46,923 bases of DNA from Candidatus Nomurabacteria bacterium (GCA_943354525.1 CALRCI010000001.1:1-46923); one strand, 5' to 3'. Counted from the stretch's first letter, positions 362 to 44,064 are shown. Notes: generated from the letters alone by a model not told the origin. Numbers and translations: made by a program.

Positions 362-485
362 GAACCCGTTTTGCATGAGACATTTTCTCCTGCGGCACGC
401 ATAAAATTCTGCTGAATTTTTGCTCTGGCTCGGCTACCCGCCTGCGCGAGACCTCCGGAGAAAATGTCTCATGCAAAACGGGTTC
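362..485 (-). repeat. Family-1 clamp element, copy A: 29-bp perfect arms (362-390 / 457-485) around a 66-nt conserved core (391-456)
   Basis: GAACCCGTTTTGCATGAGACATTTTCTCC and its exact reverse complement flank a core that matches the core at 30748-30813 at 55/66 positions (hand alignment, reverse complement). Confidence 0.85.
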
Positions 486-6427: not shown

Positions 6428-7060
6428 ATGTTATTTCATACATCAAACAAAGTGACAGATGCAGGGCGGGCGCAGGGAGTAGCGGAAGTGCTGGAGAATG
6501 CCAAGCCGGACAGTGATTTCTATATATTGGTCGTCGGAGCAATACTGCTCGCGGCGAGCGGAATATTGCTCGACAGCATTCCGGTGCTCATTGCGAGCAT
6601 GGTTGTTGCACCGCTCATGTGGCCGATTCTCGGACTCTCGCTCGGCATCAATTCCGGCGACACGAAGCTCATCGGCCGTTCCCTTTCCATGCTCGTCATA
6701 TCTATGATTGTGGCGCTCGGTGTGTCCGCGCTCGGCGCACATATCGCACTGCAGTATTTCGGCTGGAATCTCCAAGGCATCTTCATCTCCTTCTCGCCGA
6801 ATTATTTCTTTGACGTCTTCATTGCCGTGATTTCCGGCGCGATTGCGGCCTACGGGTTGGTGCGGACCAAAGTCGGCGGTGCGATGACTGGCATCGGTAT
6901 CGCCGTCTCGCTCATGCCGCCGCTCGTGGCAACCGGGATCGGACTGGTTACGTCAAAAATACTTTCAGAGAGCGCATTGATGATATTCGCGCTCAACGTT
7001 CTCGGCATTCTCATCGCCAGCTGTATCACATTCGCCATTCTCAAAGTTAAAAGCAAATAA
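6428..7060 (+). CDS. DUF389-like integral membrane protein (210 aa)
   Basis: Segment ILLDSIPVLIASMVVAPLMWPILGLSLGI resembles the DUF389/TIGR00341 core motif. Several TM helices. TATACT box 6 nt upstream of the ATG. Confidence 0.6.
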   Translation: MLFHTSNKVTDAGRAQGVAEVLENAKPDSDFYILVVGAILLAASGILLDSIPVLIASMVVAPLMWPILGLSLGINSGDTKLIGRSLSMLVISMIVALGVSALGAHIALQYFGWNLQGIFISFSPNYFFDVFIAVISGAIAAYGLVRTKVGGAMTGIGIAVSLMPPLVATGIGLVTSKILSESALMIFALNVLGILIASCITFAILKVKSK

Positions 7061-7097
7061 GCATAAAAAAATCCCGATGATCGGGATTTTTTTATGC
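7061..7097. terminator. bidirectional 17-bp hairpin between the DUF389 gene and mscL
   Basis: GCATAAAAAAATCCCGA-tga-TCGGGATTTTTTTATGC. Ends 1 nt before the mscL stop codon. Confidence 0.85.
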
Positions 7098-7388
7098 TTA
7101 TTTCGCTTCGAGTTTGAAGAGTTTCCGTGCGATAACGAAGACGATAATCGCGAGAATGAGGAAGTTGAGGAATGCGGCGAGAAATGAGCCGTACGCGAGA
7201 TGAACTGAGCCCATCGAGAGTGTGGCTTCTTTCCACGATTCCGAGCCAAAGATCGGTGCGAGAAGCGGCATGACTATATCGTTGACAAACGAGGTCACAA
7301 GGGTGGTCGCGGCAGCACCCATGACAAATGCGATGGCGAGAGAAATAATCTTGTATTCTCGGAGGAATTGTGCAAATTCTTTGATCAT
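7098..7388 (-). CDS. mscL: large-conductance mechanosensitive channel MscL, short form (96 aa)
   Basis: N-terminus MIKEFAQFLREYKIISLAIAFVMGAAATTLVTSFVNDIVMPLLAPIFG is the MscL TM1 signature. The C-terminal helical bundle is largely absent. Confidence 0.85.
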   Translation of the reverse strand: MIKEFAQFLREYKIISLAIAFVMGAAATTLVTSFVNDIVMPLLAPIFGSESWKEATLSMGSVHLAYGSFLAAFLNFLILAIIVFVIARKLFKLEAK

Positions 7389-11480: not shown

Positions 11481-11556
11481 GGAGGCTATGGTGTAACGGT
11501 TAACACTAGAGTTTGTGGAACTCTCGATCTGGGTTCGATTCCCAGTAGCCTCCCCA
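11481..11556 (+). tRNA. tRNA-His (anticodon GTG) with genome-encoded G-1 and CCA
   Basis: Hand-folded cloverleaf: G(-1)+GAGGCTA acceptor, D arm GTGT/ACAC, anticodon arm AGAGT-TTGTGGA-ACTCT, T arm CTGGG-TTCGATT-CCCAG, TAGCCTC-C-CCA. Confidence 0.9.
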
Positions 11557-11598
11557 CATGAAAAAATCCCCGTTGAGGGATTTTTTCATGTGGGGAGG
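11549..11598. terminator. bidirectional 22-bp hairpin sharing 8 nt with the tRNA-His 3' end
   Basis: CCTCCCCACATGAAAAAATCCC-cgttga-GGGATTTTTTCATGTGGGGAGG. Ends 1 nt before the PCD stop codon. Confidence 0.85.
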
Positions 11599-11934
11599 CT
11601 AGGCTTTGACTGGCAATGCATCTATCTTTGCCGCGAGGATGAAATCATTCTCGGAAAGGCCTTTGATTGAATGTGTCGAGAGGTCGAGACGAACACGATT
11701 GTAGAAAATATGAATATCTGGATGATGCCCTTCACCTTCGGCGATGTCGGCGACATCGCGCACGAAATCTATGGCGGTGACAAAATCTTTGAATATGAAT
11801 TCTCGCGAAATAGATTTGTAATCTTCGGCAACACTCCATTTCGGCACTTCGCGCGCATACACATGCGCCGTCGCATCATCGAATGGTTCCACTCCCCCTT
11901 CACATGCCGTGCATTTTTTTGAGGTGAGATCCAT
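11599..11934 (-). CDS. pterin-4-alpha-carbinolamine dehydratase (PCD/DCoH family)
   Basis: 111 aa with the family motif GEGHHPDIHIFYNRVRLDLSTHS. Confidence 0.9.
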   Translation of the reverse strand: MDLTSKKCTACEGGVEPFDDATAHVYAREVPKWSVAEDYKSISREFIFKDFVTAIDFVRDVADIAEGEGHHPDIHIFYNRVRLDLSTHSIKGLSENDFILAAKIDALPVKA

Positions 11935-14672: not shown

Positions 14673-14744
14673 GTCCCCGTAGTTAAATGGATATAACTGC
14701 GGACTTCTAAGCCGCTATTGTAGGTTCGATTCCTACCGGGGACA
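14673..14744 (+). tRNA. tRNA-Arg (anticodon TCT)
   Basis: GTCCCCG acceptor, D arm GTTA/TAAC, anticodon loop CTTCTAA (one A:G mismatch at the base of the stem), T arm GTAGG-TTCGATT-CCTAC, CGGGGAC-A. Confidence 0.85.
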
Positions 14745-14788
14745 CCCAAAGAGAAAACGCCAACTGCTTGGCGTTTTCTCTTTGGGTG
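14743..14788 (+). terminator. 21-bp hairpin after tRNA-Arg(TCT)
   Basis: CACCCAAAGAGAAAACGCCAA-ctgc-TTGGCGTTTTCTCTTTGGGTG. The left arm starts inside the tRNA. Confidence 0.8.
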
Positions 14789-14919
14789 TCGGGCGGAGCG
14801 ATGTCGAGCTAGCAAGCGAGACCGCGAGCCGGGCGATTAGTAAATCGTGCCGAGAGGCATTCAAGAAAAATTATGAGCGACGGCGAATAATTTATTCGTG
14901 ACCACATAAATCCTATTTA

Positions 14920-30521: not shown

Positions 30522-30719
30522 ATGGCAGAAGAACACAAAAAAAGCGCGGCAGTGCAAGACCTCATGTTTCTACTCGCCGCAATCATTATTGGATTCGTCA
30601 TCTGGTTCTACACCGGCGGTCCGGCACGCTTCAACAACAAGCCGTTCATCAAGCCAGCCGAGCCAATTGATTCCGGTGAGACATACGGACCAAGCACTCC
30701 GAATACGCAATTCCAGTAG
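30522..30719 (+). CDS. hypothetical small single-TM protein (65 aa)
   Basis: ORF 10 nt after fpg. TM LMFLLAAIIIGFVIWFY. Its stop codon lies inside the left arm of the clamp element. Confidence 0.45.
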   Translation: MAEEHKKSAAVQDLMFLLAAIIIGFVIWFYTGGPARFNNKPFIKPAEPIDSGETYGPSTPNTQFQ

Positions 30720-30845
30720 CACACAAGAAAATACAGATGATTTTTTATGAGACCGCGCGGAGGCGGGTAGCCGAGCTCGAGCAAAAATTCACCAGAATTT
30801 TATGCGTGTCGATTAAAAAATCATCTGTATTTTCTTGTGTGCTAC
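30716..30845 (+). repeat. Family-1 clamp element, copy B: 32-bp perfect arms (30716-30747 / 30814-30845) around a 66-nt core (30748-30813)
   Basis: GTAGCACACAAGAAAATACAGATGATTTTTTA and its exact reverse complement. Core is TGAGACCGCGCGGAGGCGGGTAGCCGAGCTCGAGCAAAAATTCACCAGAATTTTATGCGTGTCGAT. The arms include the stop codon of the small ORF upstream and the first nt of the SpoU stop codon. Confidence 0.9.
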
Positions 30846-31324
30846 TAATCTGTCAGCGCATAGAGCATAATACCAGTGGCAACAGAAACATTGAGCGATT
30901 CTTTTACACCGCGCATCGGAATCTCCGCGATCACGTCGCACTCCCCTAAAACTTTTTGAGACAGTCCCGTGACTTCCGTGCCGAGGATGAGCGCAGTTCT
31001 TTCTGTGCTTTTCACTTTTTTATAACTGACTGAATTTGTCGATTGTTCCAGTGCAACGATTCTGTAATTTTCTTTCTTGAGTTTTCGCAACAGTGGCGCA
31101 ATAGTCTTCACATGTTCCCACACAACTGAATCTTCTGCCCCGAGGGCACATTTATGAAAATCATTTCTCTTTCTTCCAAACCGATCGAGCGGTGTCGGAG
31201 TCGTCCCGATGAGGTATATCTTCCCTACTCCGGCCGCGTCGGCCGTACGAAAAATCGCTCCGACATTGTAGACGCTGCGGATATTATCGAGCACAAGGAT
31301 GATTTTATCGTTGATTTTAGGCAT
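30845..31324 (-). CDS. SpoU/TrmH-family RNA 2'-O-methyltransferase
   Basis: SVYNVGAIFRTADAAGV (motif 1) and IPMRGVKESLNVSVATGIMLY (motif 3). Start set at ATG 31324 (MPKINDKIILV...). Confidence 0.85.
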   Translation of the reverse strand: MPKINDKIILVLDNIRSVYNVGAIFRTADAAGVGKIYLIGTTPTPLDRFGRKRNDFHKCALGAEDSVVWEHVKTIAPLLRKLKKENYRIVALEQSTNSVSYKKVKSTERTALILGTEVTGLSQKVLGECDVIAEIPMRGVKESLNVSVATGIMLYALTD

Positions 31325-31758: not shown

Positions 31759-31802
31759 CCCCGTTGATAATTCACGACGGCCGTCGTGAATTATCAACGG
31801 GG
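31759..31802 (-). terminator. 22-bp loop-less palindrome after Cys-rich paralog 3, flanked by a C10 run
   Basis: CCCCGTTGATAATTCACGACGG/CCGTCGTGAATTATCAACGGGG. Confidence 0.7.
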
Positions 31803-34735: not shown

Positions 34736-34770
34736 CTCCCCTGTGACTTGCCCGACAAGCGCTCCAGATA

Positions 34771-34815
34771 ATCTGTCGAAAACGCCAAGGCTAAGCCTTG
34801 GCGTTTTCGACAGAT
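34771..34815 (-). terminator. 21-bp hairpin abutting the polA stop codon
   Basis: ATCTGTCGAAAACGCCAAGGC-taa-GCCTTGGCGTTTTCGACAGAT. Confidence 0.8.
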
Positions 34816-37194
34816 TTATTTAATTTCCCCGTAATGCCGTCCCCGACCGGCGTGGACTGCGAGTGGAATATCGGTTTTGATGTGAAGATATGACTCAGGC
34901 AGGACATTGACCATTGATTCGGAAACGATTTTCTCGACTTGTTCGGCAACGTTGTTTTCGACTTCGTAGACTAGTTCGTCGTGGATCTGGAGAACAAGAT
35001 GGGCTTTGTCACTGAGACTGGCCTTGGCAAGAGCTTTCTCGGCGTGAATGATGGCGAGCTTCATGATGTCAGCAGCCGTGCCTTGAAGCGGTGCATTCGT
35101 AGCCGTGCGTTCGGCAAGTGCGCGCATAAACGGTAGCGATGAACGAATCGCCGGGAATTGTCGTTTGCGTCCAAAGAGTGTCAGCGTGTAGCCATGCGTG
35201 CGTGCGAATTCCTTTGTGCCTTCGAGATAGTCTCTGATTGTCGGAAACTGCCGAAAATAATTTTCATAGAAACTCTCCGCTTCGGCGCGCGATGAGCCGA
35301 GATTTTTGCGAAGCGCATTCACGCCCATGCCGTAGATGATGCCGAAGTTAATAACTTTCGCTCTGCGGCGCATATCATGATCCACTTTGTCTTGCGGAAC
35401 ATTGAAGACAAATGCGGCGACACCGGAGTGAACGTCTTTACCATCGCGGAAAATTTCTGACAATCGTTCGTCATGCGACATGAGCGCGAGCACGCGAAGT
35501 TCGATCTGCGAGTAGTCGAGCGCGACGAGTGTGTGCCCCGGCGCGGCAATGAAGCCATCGCGGATGGCGCGGCCGAGTTCGCTCTTGATCGGAATGTTCT
35601 GGAGATTCGGATTTTGCGATGAGAAACGTCCCGTCGCCGCACCGTGCTGGGAGAATGTCGCATGCAGTCTGCCGTCAGGACCGGTCATTTCCGGAATGAC
35701 GTCAATGTACGTCGAGAGTAATTTCTGCAATTCGCGGTACTTCATAATCTCGGCGATGATCGGGTGCGCGTCTTCAAGGCTCTCGAGCGCTTCGATCTTC
35801 GTCGTATATGTTCCTGTCGCGCTCTTCTTGCCGAGCGGTTTCAGACCGAGTTTGACGAAGAGAATTTCCGACATCTGCTTCGGAGAATTGATATTGAATT
35901 CCTCACCAGCGAGACGATAAATATTTTTCGTATAGGCATCGAGCGTCTTGTGATAGTCAGTTGAAAGTGTACTAAATACTTTTTTGTCTATCAGAATCCC
36001 TGTTTCTGTCATCTTCGTCACGATCGGCATGAGCGGCGCTTCGATTTCGTCGTACACTTCCTGTAATTTTTCCGTCTTCAATTTCGCAAAAATCTCCTTG
36101 CGCGCCTCGGCAAACGTACTTTTCTTCGTGTACGTGAGAATATCTTCAAGCGTCGGCGTCGTTTGTTCCGAATCGATGAGCCAAAGCGCAACTGAAGTTT
36201 CGAGAAGTTCCCGAGGAGAAATATCTTCCGTTGGTGTTTCTTCTATTGTTTCTTCGATTTTCTTCCCGCCGAATACTGTCTGCGCGCGACCAATGAGACT
36301 CTTGAATTCAAATTCTTTGAAAAGTGCCGTGATTTTCGCCATATCAATTTCTTCTCGAAATGATTTTTCCGGAATGACGAAATTAATCGGCGCATCACGA
36401 CGAATTGTGGCAAGTGTTTTCGAGAAGAGCGCTTCCTCTTCCCCATCCTTGAGCAGATTGAAAACTCGTTCAGTGATTCCTAATTTTTTAAATTTTTCTT
36501 CGGCGCCGGCTTTCTTGAGATCTTTGTACATAGCCTCGAGCGTGCCAAATTCATTGATGAGAATCGTCGCCGTCTTCTCGCCGACTCCGGCAATGCCGAT
36601 AATATTGTCTGACGGATCGCCACGCAAGCCTTTGTAGTCCGGCAAATATTTCGGTTTGAATCCGTAGCGTGTGACGACGGCGTCTTCATCGTAGAGGACA
36701 GTATCAGTCAGGCCTTTCTTCAACGTAAAGACTTGCACTTTTTTCCCCGTAACAAGCTGGAGCGTATCCATATCGCCCGAAGCGATTATGATTTCGATAT
36801 TCTTGTCATCTTTCATTTGCTCGACGATCGTACCGAGACAGTCGTCGGCTTCGAATCCTTCCTTGTCATAAATTGGAATTGAGAACGCTTCGAAAATTCT
36901 CCGTGAGGCGATAAGTTGCGAAACCAGTGCGTCATCAATCTTCGCGCGTTTGCCTTTGTATGCTTCGTACGCCTCATGGCGAAATGTCTTCTTCGGCAAG
37001 TCATAGCACGCCGCGACATAGTCGGGTTTGAGGTCGGTCACGATCTTCATGATCATCGTCGAGAGGCCGTAGAGCGCTCCTGTCGGCTCGCCCTTAGAGT
37101 CAGTAAATTCCGGCAAGGCATGATAGGCGCGATGAATAATCGCGTGCGAATCAAGCAGAATCAGGCGTTTTTTAGCGGATTTTGGAGTTGCCAT
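34816..37194 (-). CDS. polA: DNA polymerase I (5'-3' exonuclease + polymerase, 3'-5' exonuclease region nearly absent)
   Basis: 5'-nuclease N-terminus LILLDSHAIIHRAYHA. Pol motif A LVALDYSQIELRVLA, motif B RRRAKVINFGIIYGM, motif C VLQIHDELV. 792 aa. Confidence 0.95.
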   Translation of the reverse strand: MATPKSAKKRLILLDSHAIIHRAYHALPEFTDSKGEPTGALYGLSTMIMKIVTDLKPDYVAACYDLPKKTFRHEAYEAYKGKRAKIDDALVSQLIASRRIFEAFSIPIYDKEGFEADDCLGTIVEQMKDDKNIEIIIASGDMDTLQLVTGKKVQVFTLKKGLTDTVLYDEDAVVTRYGFKPKYLPDYKGLRGDPSDNIIGIAGVGEKTATILINEFGTLEAMYKDLKKAGAEEKFKKLGITERVFNLLKDGEEEALFSKTLATIRRDAPINFVIPEKSFREEIDMAKITALFKEFEFKSLIGRAQTVFGGKKIEETIEETPTEDISPRELLETSVALWLIDSEQTTPTLEDILTYTKKSTFAEARKEIFAKLKTEKLQEVYDEIEAPLMPIVTKMTETGILIDKKVFSTLSTDYHKTLDAYTKNIYRLAGEEFNINSPKQMSEILFVKLGLKPLGKKSATGTYTTKIEALESLEDAHPIIAEIMKYRELQKLLSTYIDVIPEMTGPDGRLHATFSQHGAATGRFSSQNPNLQNIPIKSELGRAIRDGFIAAPGHTLVALDYSQIELRVLALMSHDERLSEIFRDGKDVHSGVAAFVFNVPQDKVDHDMRRRAKVINFGIIYGMGVNALRKNLGSSRAEAESFYENYFRQFPTIRDYLEGTKEFARTHGYTLTLFGRKRQFPAIRSSLPFMRALAERTATNAPLQGTAADIMKLAIIHAEKALAKASLSDKAHLVLQIHDELVYEVENNVAEQVEKIVSESMVNVLPESYLHIKTDIPLAVHAGRGRHYGEIK

Positions 37195-37651: not shown

Positions 37652-37689
37652 AAAAAGAAAAACAGCGCATATGCGCTGTTTTTCTTTTT
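37652..37689 (-). terminator. 19-bp loop-less palindrome after the 681-aa surface protein gene
   Basis: AAAAAGAAAAACAGCGCAT/ATGCGCTGTTTTTCTTTTT. Confidence 0.8.
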
Positions 37690-39754: not shown

Positions 39755-39884
39755 CGCCCCGAATTCTTTCCTGATCTGATTTTTTAATCGACACGCATAA
39801 TTTCTTGCTAGAAATTTGCTGGAGCTCGGCTACCCGCCTCCGCGCGGTCTCATAAAAAATCAGATCAGGAAAGAATTCGGGGCG
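39755..39884 (-). repeat. Family-1 clamp element, copy C: 32-bp perfect arms (39755-39786 / 39853-39884) around a 66-nt core (39787-39852)
   Basis: CGCCCCGAATTCTTTCCTGATCTGATTTTTTA and its exact reverse complement. Core reverse complement is 56/66 identical to copy B, with 4 compensatory pair swaps in the internal hairpin. Confidence 0.9.
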
Positions 39885-43558: not shown

Positions 43559-43582
43559 AAAATCCCCTCTAGGGGATTTTTT
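43557..43582 (+). terminator. 12-bp hairpin plus T-run after pilB
   Basis: AAAAAATCCCCT-ct-AGGGGATTTTTT. Confidence 0.8.
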
Positions 43583-43588
43583 GGTTTC

Positions 43589-43752
43589 GCCATCCTAAAA
43601 ATTCTTTCTTAAATTTTGTTTTTAAGATCGCAACGATTCTGTATGCGTCTTTTGTAATTTCCGTGCAAGACTTGAACCATTCGAAAAATGAATGGATCGT
43701 GAGGTTGCTCGGGCTCATTAAAAAAAATTTAAGAAAGAATTTTTAGGATGGC
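43589..43752 (+). repeat. Family-2 clamp element, copy 2: 29-bp perfect arms (43589-43617 / 43724-43752), a few extra imperfect pairs, and a ~92-nt core (43626-43717)
   Basis: GCCATCCTAAAAATTCTTTCTTAAATTTT and its exact reverse complement. The core shares the blocks TCGCAACGAT.CTGTAT.CGT, TTCCGTGCAAGACT and AGGTTGCTCGG.CTCA with copy 1. Confidence 0.85.
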
Positions 43753-44064
43753 TCAGGCAAAATAAAAAAGCATAAATCTCCAAACAATCCTTATGGCAAT
43801 AGATGTCATAAGTAACACAATCTTAAAGGATGGCCCCAGCGAACTAATTAAAGAAGCCAAAACGTCCTTTGCGAAGGTATATAACGGAACCGCTGATTGC
43901 TTAGAGATTCATGCTCTCTTCTCGTTGAATCTCAGTATATATTAAAAAATGTACTTCGCTTCCGGCGAAGTGGTATACTCTGGGCATATCGTGTGTATAA
44001 ACCTGTTCTGGGAAGAGCATAGCATAGATGCTAAAATAAGTCAATAGCACCAAGCTCGTACGCC

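Follow-up and report, generated by a model that had tools for sequence, protein, structure and literature searches.

The window analysed here, 46,923 nucleotides of Candidatus Nomurabacteria bacterium DNA (GCA_943354525.1 CALRCI010000001.1:1-46923), carries three copies of a clamp-shaped element, labelled A (362-485), B (30716-30845) and C (39755-39884), in each of which a 66-nt core is enclosed by perfect inverted-repeat arms; the repeat family to which they belong is named F1. An earlier note, made from the sequence alone, had reported the three loci and their mutually unrelated arms, and a repeat search of the window agrees with that description at arm lengths of 29-33 bp. Copy B folds from the plus strand, with its 5' arm at 30715..30747, its core at 30748..30813 and its 3' arm at 30814..30846, both arms being 33 nt long and perfect. 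For the other two copies the folding strand is the minus strand: copy C consists of a 5' arm at 39853..39884, a core at 39787..39852 and a 3' arm at 39755..39786 (perfect arms of 32 nt), and copy A of a 5' arm at 457..485, a core at 391..456 and a 3' arm at 362..390 (perfect arms of 29 nt). The repeat search returned B and C as perfect inverted repeats, each 66 nt apart, and A as an inverted repeat of 34 nt at 94% (362-395/452-485), the perfect part of which covers 29 nt (362-390/457-485). The only stretch that any of the arms have in common is the innermost TGATTTTTTA (10 nt), found in B and C.

The three cores align without gaps, and realignment gave exactly the identities counted before, 56/66 between B and C and 55/66 between B and A, with eight of the ten differences between B and C forming four compensatory swaps in hairpin P4 (core positions 39/52, 40/51, 42/49 and 43/48). 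The motif GGCGGGTAGCCGAGC, already noted in all three cores, occurs exactly three times in the window, and allowing up to three mismatches yielded six matches compared with 0.76 expected. Scored with the covariance model R1, the cores of A, B and C reached 83.3, 78.2 (E 1.3e-18) and 76.1 bits, respectively, and the folding energies of the copies range from -68 to -79 kcal/mol, with z = -11 to -13 relative to shuffles. In copy B, the core is a three-way junction with a UGA/GAU tandem G:A loop at its base, the P3 cap hairpin GGC-GGGUA-GCC at 30762-30772 and the P4 hairpin at 30781-30790/30795-30805, which includes a bulged A at 30802.

All three copies lie close to genes, and the contacts described earlier for B and C were confirmed from the coordinates. 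The left arm of copy B includes the stop codon (30717-30719) of a 65-aa open reading frame (ORF), and its right arm shares 1-2 nt with the SpoU stop (30845-30847). Copy C is separated by 14 nt from the ATG (39740) of the surface-protein gene downstream of it, and the ZIP transporter stop (501) precedes the 5' arm of copy A by 16 nt. The 65-aa ORF (30522-30719, plus strand) is without a Pfam match, and neither L040 nor L044 (L-numbered labels denote other loci or contigs compared with the window) has anything corresponding to it between Fpg and SpoU. A 70-aa ORF (30737-30949, plus strand) that begins in the left arm of copy B, spans the core and ends antisense in SpoU is almost certainly spurious.

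The F1 family and its conserved junction

A first exact-pattern scan of one genome per GTDB species retrieved 34 loci, 32 of which are true; every record with a taxon name belongs to Patescibacteria (Paceibacterota, Nomura-, Taylor-, Portnoybacteria and others). The remaining two matches, in metagenome-assembled genomes (MAGs) of Mycobacteriales and Alcaligenaceae, differ in spacing and were rejected as chance. A second pattern, in which the 3' half was left free, returned 98 metagenome stretches. With R1, 45 copies were located in the window and the first loci, including 11 additional, more diverged copies in the flanks, and 87 further copies in the metagenome loci. With R1 totals of 48 + 87, pattern scans and covariance model together gave about 135 copies, 112 of them non-redundant, at an extrapolated density of roughly one copy per 15-60 kb. 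The core search proposed in the earlier note, meant also to test whether the arms are always locus-specific, did find more copies, and in many relatives the arms are conserved. Because each search pattern fixes part of the core, the core appears more invariant than it is, although each half was free in one of the scans.

A search of the whole window against Rfam 15 at the gathering threshold identified seven tRNAs and nothing else, in line with the earlier impression that the core falls outside known RNA families. None of the Rfam families, among them hammerhead, twister, twister-sister, pistol, hatchet, hepatitis delta virus (HDV)-like, signal recognition particle (SRP), 6S, Y RNA and HEARO, was matched by the element at that threshold. 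At E<=10, copy B, a canonical copy and the sister element F1b (see below) gave only sub-threshold matches at chance level (microRNA precursors, a long non-coding RNA region, the trp leader and a viral pseudoknot). No F1 copy was detected in phage records by blastn or in IMG/VR viral contigs by pattern scan. The searchable literature yielded nothing relevant on structured RNAs, miniature inverted-repeat transposable elements (MITEs), repetitive extragenic palindromes (REPs) or the core sequence in the Candidate Phyla Radiation (CPR)/Patescibacteria, and no description of their non-coding elements. F1 is a large and widespread repeat family of CPR (Paceibacteria) genomes that is absent from Rfam 15 and from searchable papers.

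The F1 consensus is a three-way junction on a long outer stem, P1/P2, with a conserved centre of about 55-60 nt (…YUUGCRCAG–hairpin–CGAGCA.AGCAA–hairpin–UAUGCGUG…). P3 consists of pairs 15:40, 17:39, 18:37 and 19:36 and a bulged U, carries an R-C-A/G-A internal loop and is closed by the cap GGC-GGGUA-GCC; P4, of 10 bp, has one bulged A and ends in an A-N-Y-A tetraloop. Across 34 copies, 90% of the alignment cells pair and 22 of 31 pairs have changed on both sides, values that shuffles and slid registers fall far below; the junction pair 15:40 alone occurs as CG in 18, AU in 10 and UA in three copies. For 71 distinct metagenome copies, in an alignment that was fitted to the covariance model and thus leans towards the structure, 93.7% of cells are paired and 28/31 pairs doubly changed, with 0/500 shuffles scoring as high, which bears out the earlier proposal of a conserved structure with covariation. 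More diverged copies have the P3 cap swapped for other hairpins, some of about 45 nt, and keep …GCGCAG/CGAGC…, and the 3' half of the core exists in at least three subtypes that retain the architecture. Below the junction, a tandem G:A loop (WGA/GAR) is found in many copies, and a large subfamily contains a second conserved purine-rich loop (GUYGMAG/RAGAAAG) lower in the stem.

The strand that folds could be read from the wobble pairs, as an A:C apposition on the modelled strand corresponds to G:U on the opposite one. A count over 64 distinct copies, limited to their inner 82 nt, gave 46 G:U and 14 A:C; for P4 alone the numbers are 13 and 1, and in the outer arms the bias is weaker (24 vs 14). 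The strand carrying GGCGGGUAGCCGAGC is thus the one whose fold is maintained, and covariation conserves the junction fold on this strand only. On these data, the folded strand may be either RNA or single-stranded DNA. Readings of the core as K-turn, selenocysteine insertion sequence (SECIS)-like, tRNA-like or dif-like were dropped by eye, the defining bulge, loop or spacing being absent.

Strong covariation and a G:U bias on one strand are also what a stand-alone small RNA gene would display, and we regard such genes as the main rival to the mobile repeat that we favour below, although an unlikely one. The copies would then encode a rod-shaped RNA of ~80-130 nt with paired ends, the three-way junction as its head and a promoter in or near the arm, acting in trans through protein binding or sequestering, or representing a new ribozyme class. 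The conserved bulged A and U and the purine-rich loops (WGA/GAR, GUYGMAG/RAGAAAG), as in protein-binding RNAs, are compatible with this proposal. The same holds for the canonical copies, in which a TAAATT/TATAAA hexamer precedes the element by a few nt and the stem is followed by a U-rich tail. However, -10-like hexamers occur on both sides of the element and do not single out the folding strand, and a promoter asymmetry of the canonical copies was rejected, as their flanks are symmetric upstream and downstream. In the window, the arms begin in or at the stop codons of the neighbours and leave no room for a promoter, sigma-70 and terminator consensus matches at A, B and C do not exceed shuffle expectation, and Rfam provides no match.

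Orientation and turnover at fixed sites

According to ORF calls made with a simple script, 23 of the 112 non-redundant copies are sense to both neighbours, 20 are antisense to both, 16 lie between convergent and 15 between divergent genes, and for 38 copies one or both neighbours could not be assigned. Copies A, B and C are all sense to their upstream gene, so that the shared orientation pointed out earlier is real for the window; it does not extend to the family, given these counts and the whole-element inversions reported below, and is a coincidence of three copies out of three. Along a contig, adjacent copies point the same way about as often as opposite ways, and a link between orientation and replication was rejected because of this mixture; the GC skew of the window flips sign too often to serve as a replication guide.

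These counts bear directly on the suggestion that F1 is a transcript module acting in cis and selected locus by locus, be it as a stabiliser in the 3' untranslated region (3'-UTR), a bidirectional terminator or an RNase III site. All copies are intergenic, some of them (window copy B, L104 and L040) fill the space between two stop codons exactly, and A, B and C follow the direction of the upstream gene. Perfect stems of 29-33 bp, as found in the window, suffice for RNase III, and canonical relatives end in an A-run/U-run like bidirectional terminators. On the other hand, 20/43 co-directional copies are antisense, and the 15 copies between divergent genes sit where no 3' end exists. Orientation flips among close relatives with unchanged neighbours, and a stem alone would not require a core conserved throughout the class. 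In addition, no U tract follows the window stems, and terminator-like sites were not found at B and C, the single one near A falling inside the ZIP gene. Close relatives with the same gene pair do without F1 and have spacers of 2-7 nt or overlapping genes in its place, which, together with the antisense half of the co-directional copies, contradicts the dedicated 3'-UTR role put forward in the earlier note. Overall, we regard selection for a transcript module at each locus as quite improbable.

Comparison of the same gene pair in different genomes revealed how individual sites change. For the window genome, the same-strain contig L035 is the sole close relative, the next SpoU homologs being 66-70% identical. 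In the convergent SpoU/Fpg spacer, the site of copy B, F1 is present in the window as well as in L040 and L044, in each case antisense to SpoU, with unrelated arms and different core subtypes; the arms of L040 contain one bulge and one mismatch and those of L044 two G:U pairs. In L095, the whole element including its arm asymmetries is inverted relative to L040/L041, and a second element lies alongside. Where F1 is missing, SpoU and Fpg overlap (L042) or another ORF fills the gap (L043), and the unoccupied site of L042 has no palindrome; in L037-L039 the locus is rearranged.

The ComEC/Sod spacer behaves similarly, with F1 in one orientation in L001/L081 and in the opposite one in L104 and L085. 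Here, F1 is 98-99% identical while the flanking genes are 75-87% identical. In L143 and L146, F1 is replaced by the sister element F1b, and both stand in tandem in L145 and L025. F1b consists of a core AAGGGGTTTCGAGGCTGNCGAGCCGAGAAYTTCAGGATTTTT…AAAAATCCGTACCGGC on arms AAAATCAAGAATAATGTTTTT, with a weak R1 score (36 bits), and was located at ~2965-3075 in L143, ~2990-3110 in L146, ~3155-3275 in L145, in L025 and at 6592-6676 in L073. The same outer palindrome, TAGAGAAAA…TTTTCTCTA, brackets F1 in L001 and F1b in L146 and L145. In L144 (2940-2990), the Sod (superoxide dismutase) ORF ends inside a 19-nt remnant of the F1 5' arm (AAAAACTCATTGAAGTCAT) and overlaps ComEC; the apparently empty site is a deletion remnant, in which a decayed repeat has been absorbed into the coding region.

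Further pairs differ in occupancy at even closer distance. The flanks of L059 and L141, with and without F1, are 100% identical, and those of the filled L018 and the unoccupied L093 are 97% and 90% identical; in the unoccupied L093 and L131, spacers of 2-7 nt replace the filled spacer. F1 thus turns over among close relatives by deletion, inversion of the whole element and replacement by another subtype.

An inverton-like DNA switch, in which a recombinase or template switching flips the core and thereby alters a promoter, terminator or binding site, would agree with two observations: in each of two independent loci the whole element is inverted between close relatives (L001 vs L104/L085, L095 vs L040/L041), and orientation is random throughout the family, neighbours being about as often discordant as concordant. 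The two orientations at one site were, however, seen in different, closely related genomes, no invertase gene lies beside the copies with Pfam annotation, and the core lacks a promoter consensus. As inversion is the expected passive by-product of long inverted repeats, we give very little credence to a dedicated switch.

For the RNA-gene alternative, the comparisons point in both directions. Orientation independent of the neighbours is typical of independent genes, and an element far better conserved than the genes around it is likewise in its favour. Nevertheless, close relatives lose copies without replacement, and one copy per 15-60 kb, as extrapolated, would be unusually many for a small-RNA gene in small genomes.

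Evidence that F1 also multiplies comes from metagenome Ga0172379, where L071, L073, L083, L097 and L123 carry near-identical copies of ~150 nt between differing flanks, in what may be one genome or several. In contrast, the A, B and C cores of the window are just 55-56/66 identical. Near-identical copies at different loci indicate that F1 amplifies.

Arms and perfect palindromes

The 94 arm pairs of A, B and C contain no G:U pair or mismatch, whereas six G:U occur among the 152 stem pairs of the tRNAs in the window. They differ among the paralogs and, at one site, among genera, yet in other lineages they are conserved: many relatives share the imperfect arms AACTCGTYGCAGGC ... GCCAAGAAAGAGTT, the five Ga0172379 copies have conserved arms TAAATTNCGAAACTC-GTCGCAG-…, and one arm pair recurs in many genomes and across two core subtypes. 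The arms are therefore the least constrained part of the stem, and their locus-specific sequences in the window are those of an ordinary, fast-drifting stem that needs only to pair. The conserved terminal inverted repeats of a classical MITE are accordingly absent in A, B and C and present in many relatives (AACTCGTYGCAGGC…GCCAAGAAAGAGTT and TAAATTNCGAAACTC ends), and the characterisation of the clamp as the opposite of a MITE is not supported for the family, nor by the five near-identical copies of one metagenome. At A, B and C no direct repeats indicative of target duplication were found; some canonical copies have TA at either end, which is at most suggestive of one.

The earlier note had also considered that insertion of the core creates the arms by inverted duplication of the target. 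In a variant of this idea considered here, the core inserts at the apex of a pre-existing palindromic terminator and the arms are host DNA. Perfect, locus-specific arms in the window are what such an event would leave behind. Without TGATTTTTTA, the arms of B and C measure 23 and 22 bp, matching the bare palindromes of the same window (14-25 bp, see below), and F1 and F1b at ComEC/Sod share their outer palindrome TAGAGAAAA…TTTTCTCTA. The unoccupied sites in L141, L093 and L131, however, contain neither a palindrome nor an inverted flank copy, and in none of the three filled-vs-unoccupied junctions read in detail is an arm an inverted copy of the flank; L042 has no palindrome either, and the apparently empty L144 is a deletion remnant. 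Moreover, the T-run/A-run polarity of the window arms is opposite to that of the terminator-like palindromes in the window, a G+C-rich apex is lacking, canonical arms are conserved and travel with the element, and the SpoU/Fpg copies in three genera have unrelated arms. An origin of the arms from the target is accordingly very unlikely.

Perfect symmetry is a wider property of the window, in which about ten bare perfect palindromes with arms of 14-25 bp, some of them loop-free, were counted. Four intergenic ones (31759-31802, 37652-37689, 34770-34816 and 7055-7103) have perfect arms of 19-24 bp and a loop of 0 or 1 nt, and the first is unchanged in the same-strain contig L035. Such symmetry, unbroken at the centre, is more than an RNA hairpin calls for and suggests an origin at the DNA level. 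Two others of this set, perfect palindromes of 25 and 23 bp (11546-11601 and 14741-14790), directly follow tRNA-His and tRNA-Arg, are centred on an A-run/G+C stem/T-run terminator and take in 11 (tRNA-His) and 8 nt (tRNA-Arg) of the tRNA 3' end, the encoded CCA included. Since the palindromes reach into the tRNA 3' ends, the trailer holds an inverted copy of the acceptor 3' strand, and we know of no RNA-level role for a tRNA 3' end paired with its trailer.

A second clamp family is present at 1992-2147 and 43579-43762, with perfect arms of 32 bp and 29 bp (the latter inside 43 bp at 88%) and cores of ~92-106 nt that are 73% identical to each other. It shares the basal motif TTTTA-TGAG.CCGAGC … GCGA.CT-TAAAA with the first family, has no Rfam match, and no copy was found in about 1 Mb of other Paceibacteria loci. 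Nearby, 2204-2461 on the minus strand encodes an 85-aa SWIB/MDM2-domain protein (PF02201, E 5e-31), a domain uncommon in bacteria beyond a few lineages.

These observations would be explained by DNA-level correction or extension of palindromes through template switching within hairpins. The earlier suggestion that arm perfection arises at the DNA level appears plausible in view of the 0/94 G:U pairs compared with 6/152 in tRNA stems and of the palindromes at tRNA ends, even though the correction process itself is inferred only. Such correction would speed up 'compensatory' change and so lower the weight of outer-stem covariation as a sign of selection. It does not account for the conserved bulges and loops of the core or for its G:U bias on one strand.

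The nature of F1 and its significance

Several known elements resemble F1 in part. ERIC and Correia repeats are intergenic, ~100-150 nt long, form a long hairpin, occur in tens to hundreds of copies in either orientation and are present or absent among relatives. ERIC/IRU of enterobacteria and Correia CREE/NEMIS of Neisseria are thus similar to F1 in size, hairpin, intergenic position, both orientations and variable presence. In these repeats, however, conservation covers the entire sequence together with its terminal inverted repeats, whereas F1 combines a conserved central junction with a variable stem (fully so in the window); a TA target duplication has been described for Correia, while none is readable for F1, and F1 is conserved throughout a class instead of within a genus or family. 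The bacterial interspersed mosaic elements (BIMEs) and REPs associated with REP-associated tyrosine transposases (RAYTs) are likewise extragenic palindromes, with one per roughly 10-20 kb in both orientations, and are thought to be handled as folded single strands. Yet REPs are simple imperfect hairpins of 20-40 nt, species-specific and flanking a RAYT gene, while F1 is branched and conserved in sequence class-wide.

The integron attC sites and the end hairpins of IS200/IS605 offer a parallel for the folding of one strand, since extrahelical bases, stem geometry and loops are read there rather than stem sequence; the bulged A and U of F1 and its excess of G:U over A:C represent a comparable strand-selective asymmetry. 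However, attC sites have R boxes, a variable head and one-orientation cassette arrays beside an integrase, compared with the conserved head and dispersed copies in both orientations of F1, and the two similar hairpins and defined cleavage tetranucleotides of IS200/IS605 ends were not seen. No integrase was found in the annotated neighbourhoods, though R boxes and intI had no dedicated search. Bidirectional intrinsic terminators and RNase III stem-loops share with F1 the long intergenic hairpin, sometimes reaching from stop to stop, as well as the A-run/U-run flanks of canonical copies. Terminators need no conserved 60-nt head, though, which F1 has, also between divergent genes and in window copies lacking a U tract.

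Y1_Tnp genes (PF01797, RAYT/IS200-like, HUH motif NHFHIL) were found in L143 (300-932), L078 (7874-8557) and L066 (2000-2491), each bracketed by its own genome-specific perfect palindrome of 10-13 bp, e.g. ACCCCATAGGAA-T-TTCCTATGGGGT, which is a REP/RAYT-like arrangement in CPR genomes. The window, in which no transposase had been recognised before, also lacks a homolog of Y1_Tnp, the sole candidate found.

Many copies in any context and orientation, near-identical bursts, turnover and dispensability for the neighbours led us to a MITE/REP-like reading. Our preferred, if still tentative, explanation is that F1 represents a small, non-autonomous, palindromic intergenic repeat of the MITE/REP/ERIC type with a conserved folded centre that is read by a trans-acting factor. 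As a single strand, be it a DNA intermediate or possibly RNA, the folded element would serve as the recognition module for a putative trans-acting enzyme or binding protein of Paceibacteria, which would copy, convert or move F1, while the inverted-repeat arms themselves could cause the orientation flips. In the window genome, the arms may owe their perfection to correction of palindromes at the DNA level, by template switching within the hairpin, and the same tendency would yield the bare perfect palindromes. A perfect hairpin of 30 bp, transcribed either way, could in addition provide a transcript end, an RNase III site or an insulating structure between packed genes; this would be a side effect or secondary use and not the reason for the conservation of the core.

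A number of points weigh against such a repeat. No transposase, recombinase or autonomous parent linked to F1 was found in the compared loci, and in ~1.06 Mb of loci, a limited sample, the arm motifs always stand ~100 nt apart and never around a gene, which speaks against an autonomous parent. A link between F1 and Y1_Tnp/RAYT was rejected for now, as other palindromes flank the Y1_Tnp genes. Target-site duplications are not readable at the filled-vs-unoccupied junctions, L059/L141 and L018/L093 included, and A, B and C have no conserved termini, so that past movement is not demonstrable for them. The core contains 22 or more invariant nt class-wide and is better conserved than known MITEs and REPs, and a functional RNA would agree just as well with this invariance and with the G:U bias on one strand. 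Genome copy numbers are extrapolated from pieces of 5-47 kb, the G:U/A:C and context counts overstate the sample size as the copies are related by phylogeny, and palindrome correction is an inferred step.

It is also possible, but in our view unlikely, that the three-way junction is the handle of an undescribed hairpin-dependent system, operating by single-strand copy-and-paste, gene conversion, inversion or as a new self-processing RNA/DNA motif. It would spread a branched 60-nt module among Paceibacteria genomes, with long perfect palindromes growing around it, and the arms, perhaps together with the bare palindromes, would be its products instead of ordinary stems.

CPR/Patescibacteria genomes, about 1 Mb in size, are considered to have shed selfish and repetitive DNA. 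As a class-wide, multi-copy and structured element that is absent from Rfam, F1 constitutes a new RNA/DNA motif with unusually clean covariation. Its inversions, deletions and changes of subtype at fixed sites make it a marker of genome dynamics in organisms that cannot be cultivated on their own, and it offers a lead to a putative trans-acting factor conserved in Paceibacteria. The long perfect palindromes, some of which invade tRNA genes, suggest a distinctive process at the DNA level that, if true, would affect both assembly and annotation of these genomes.

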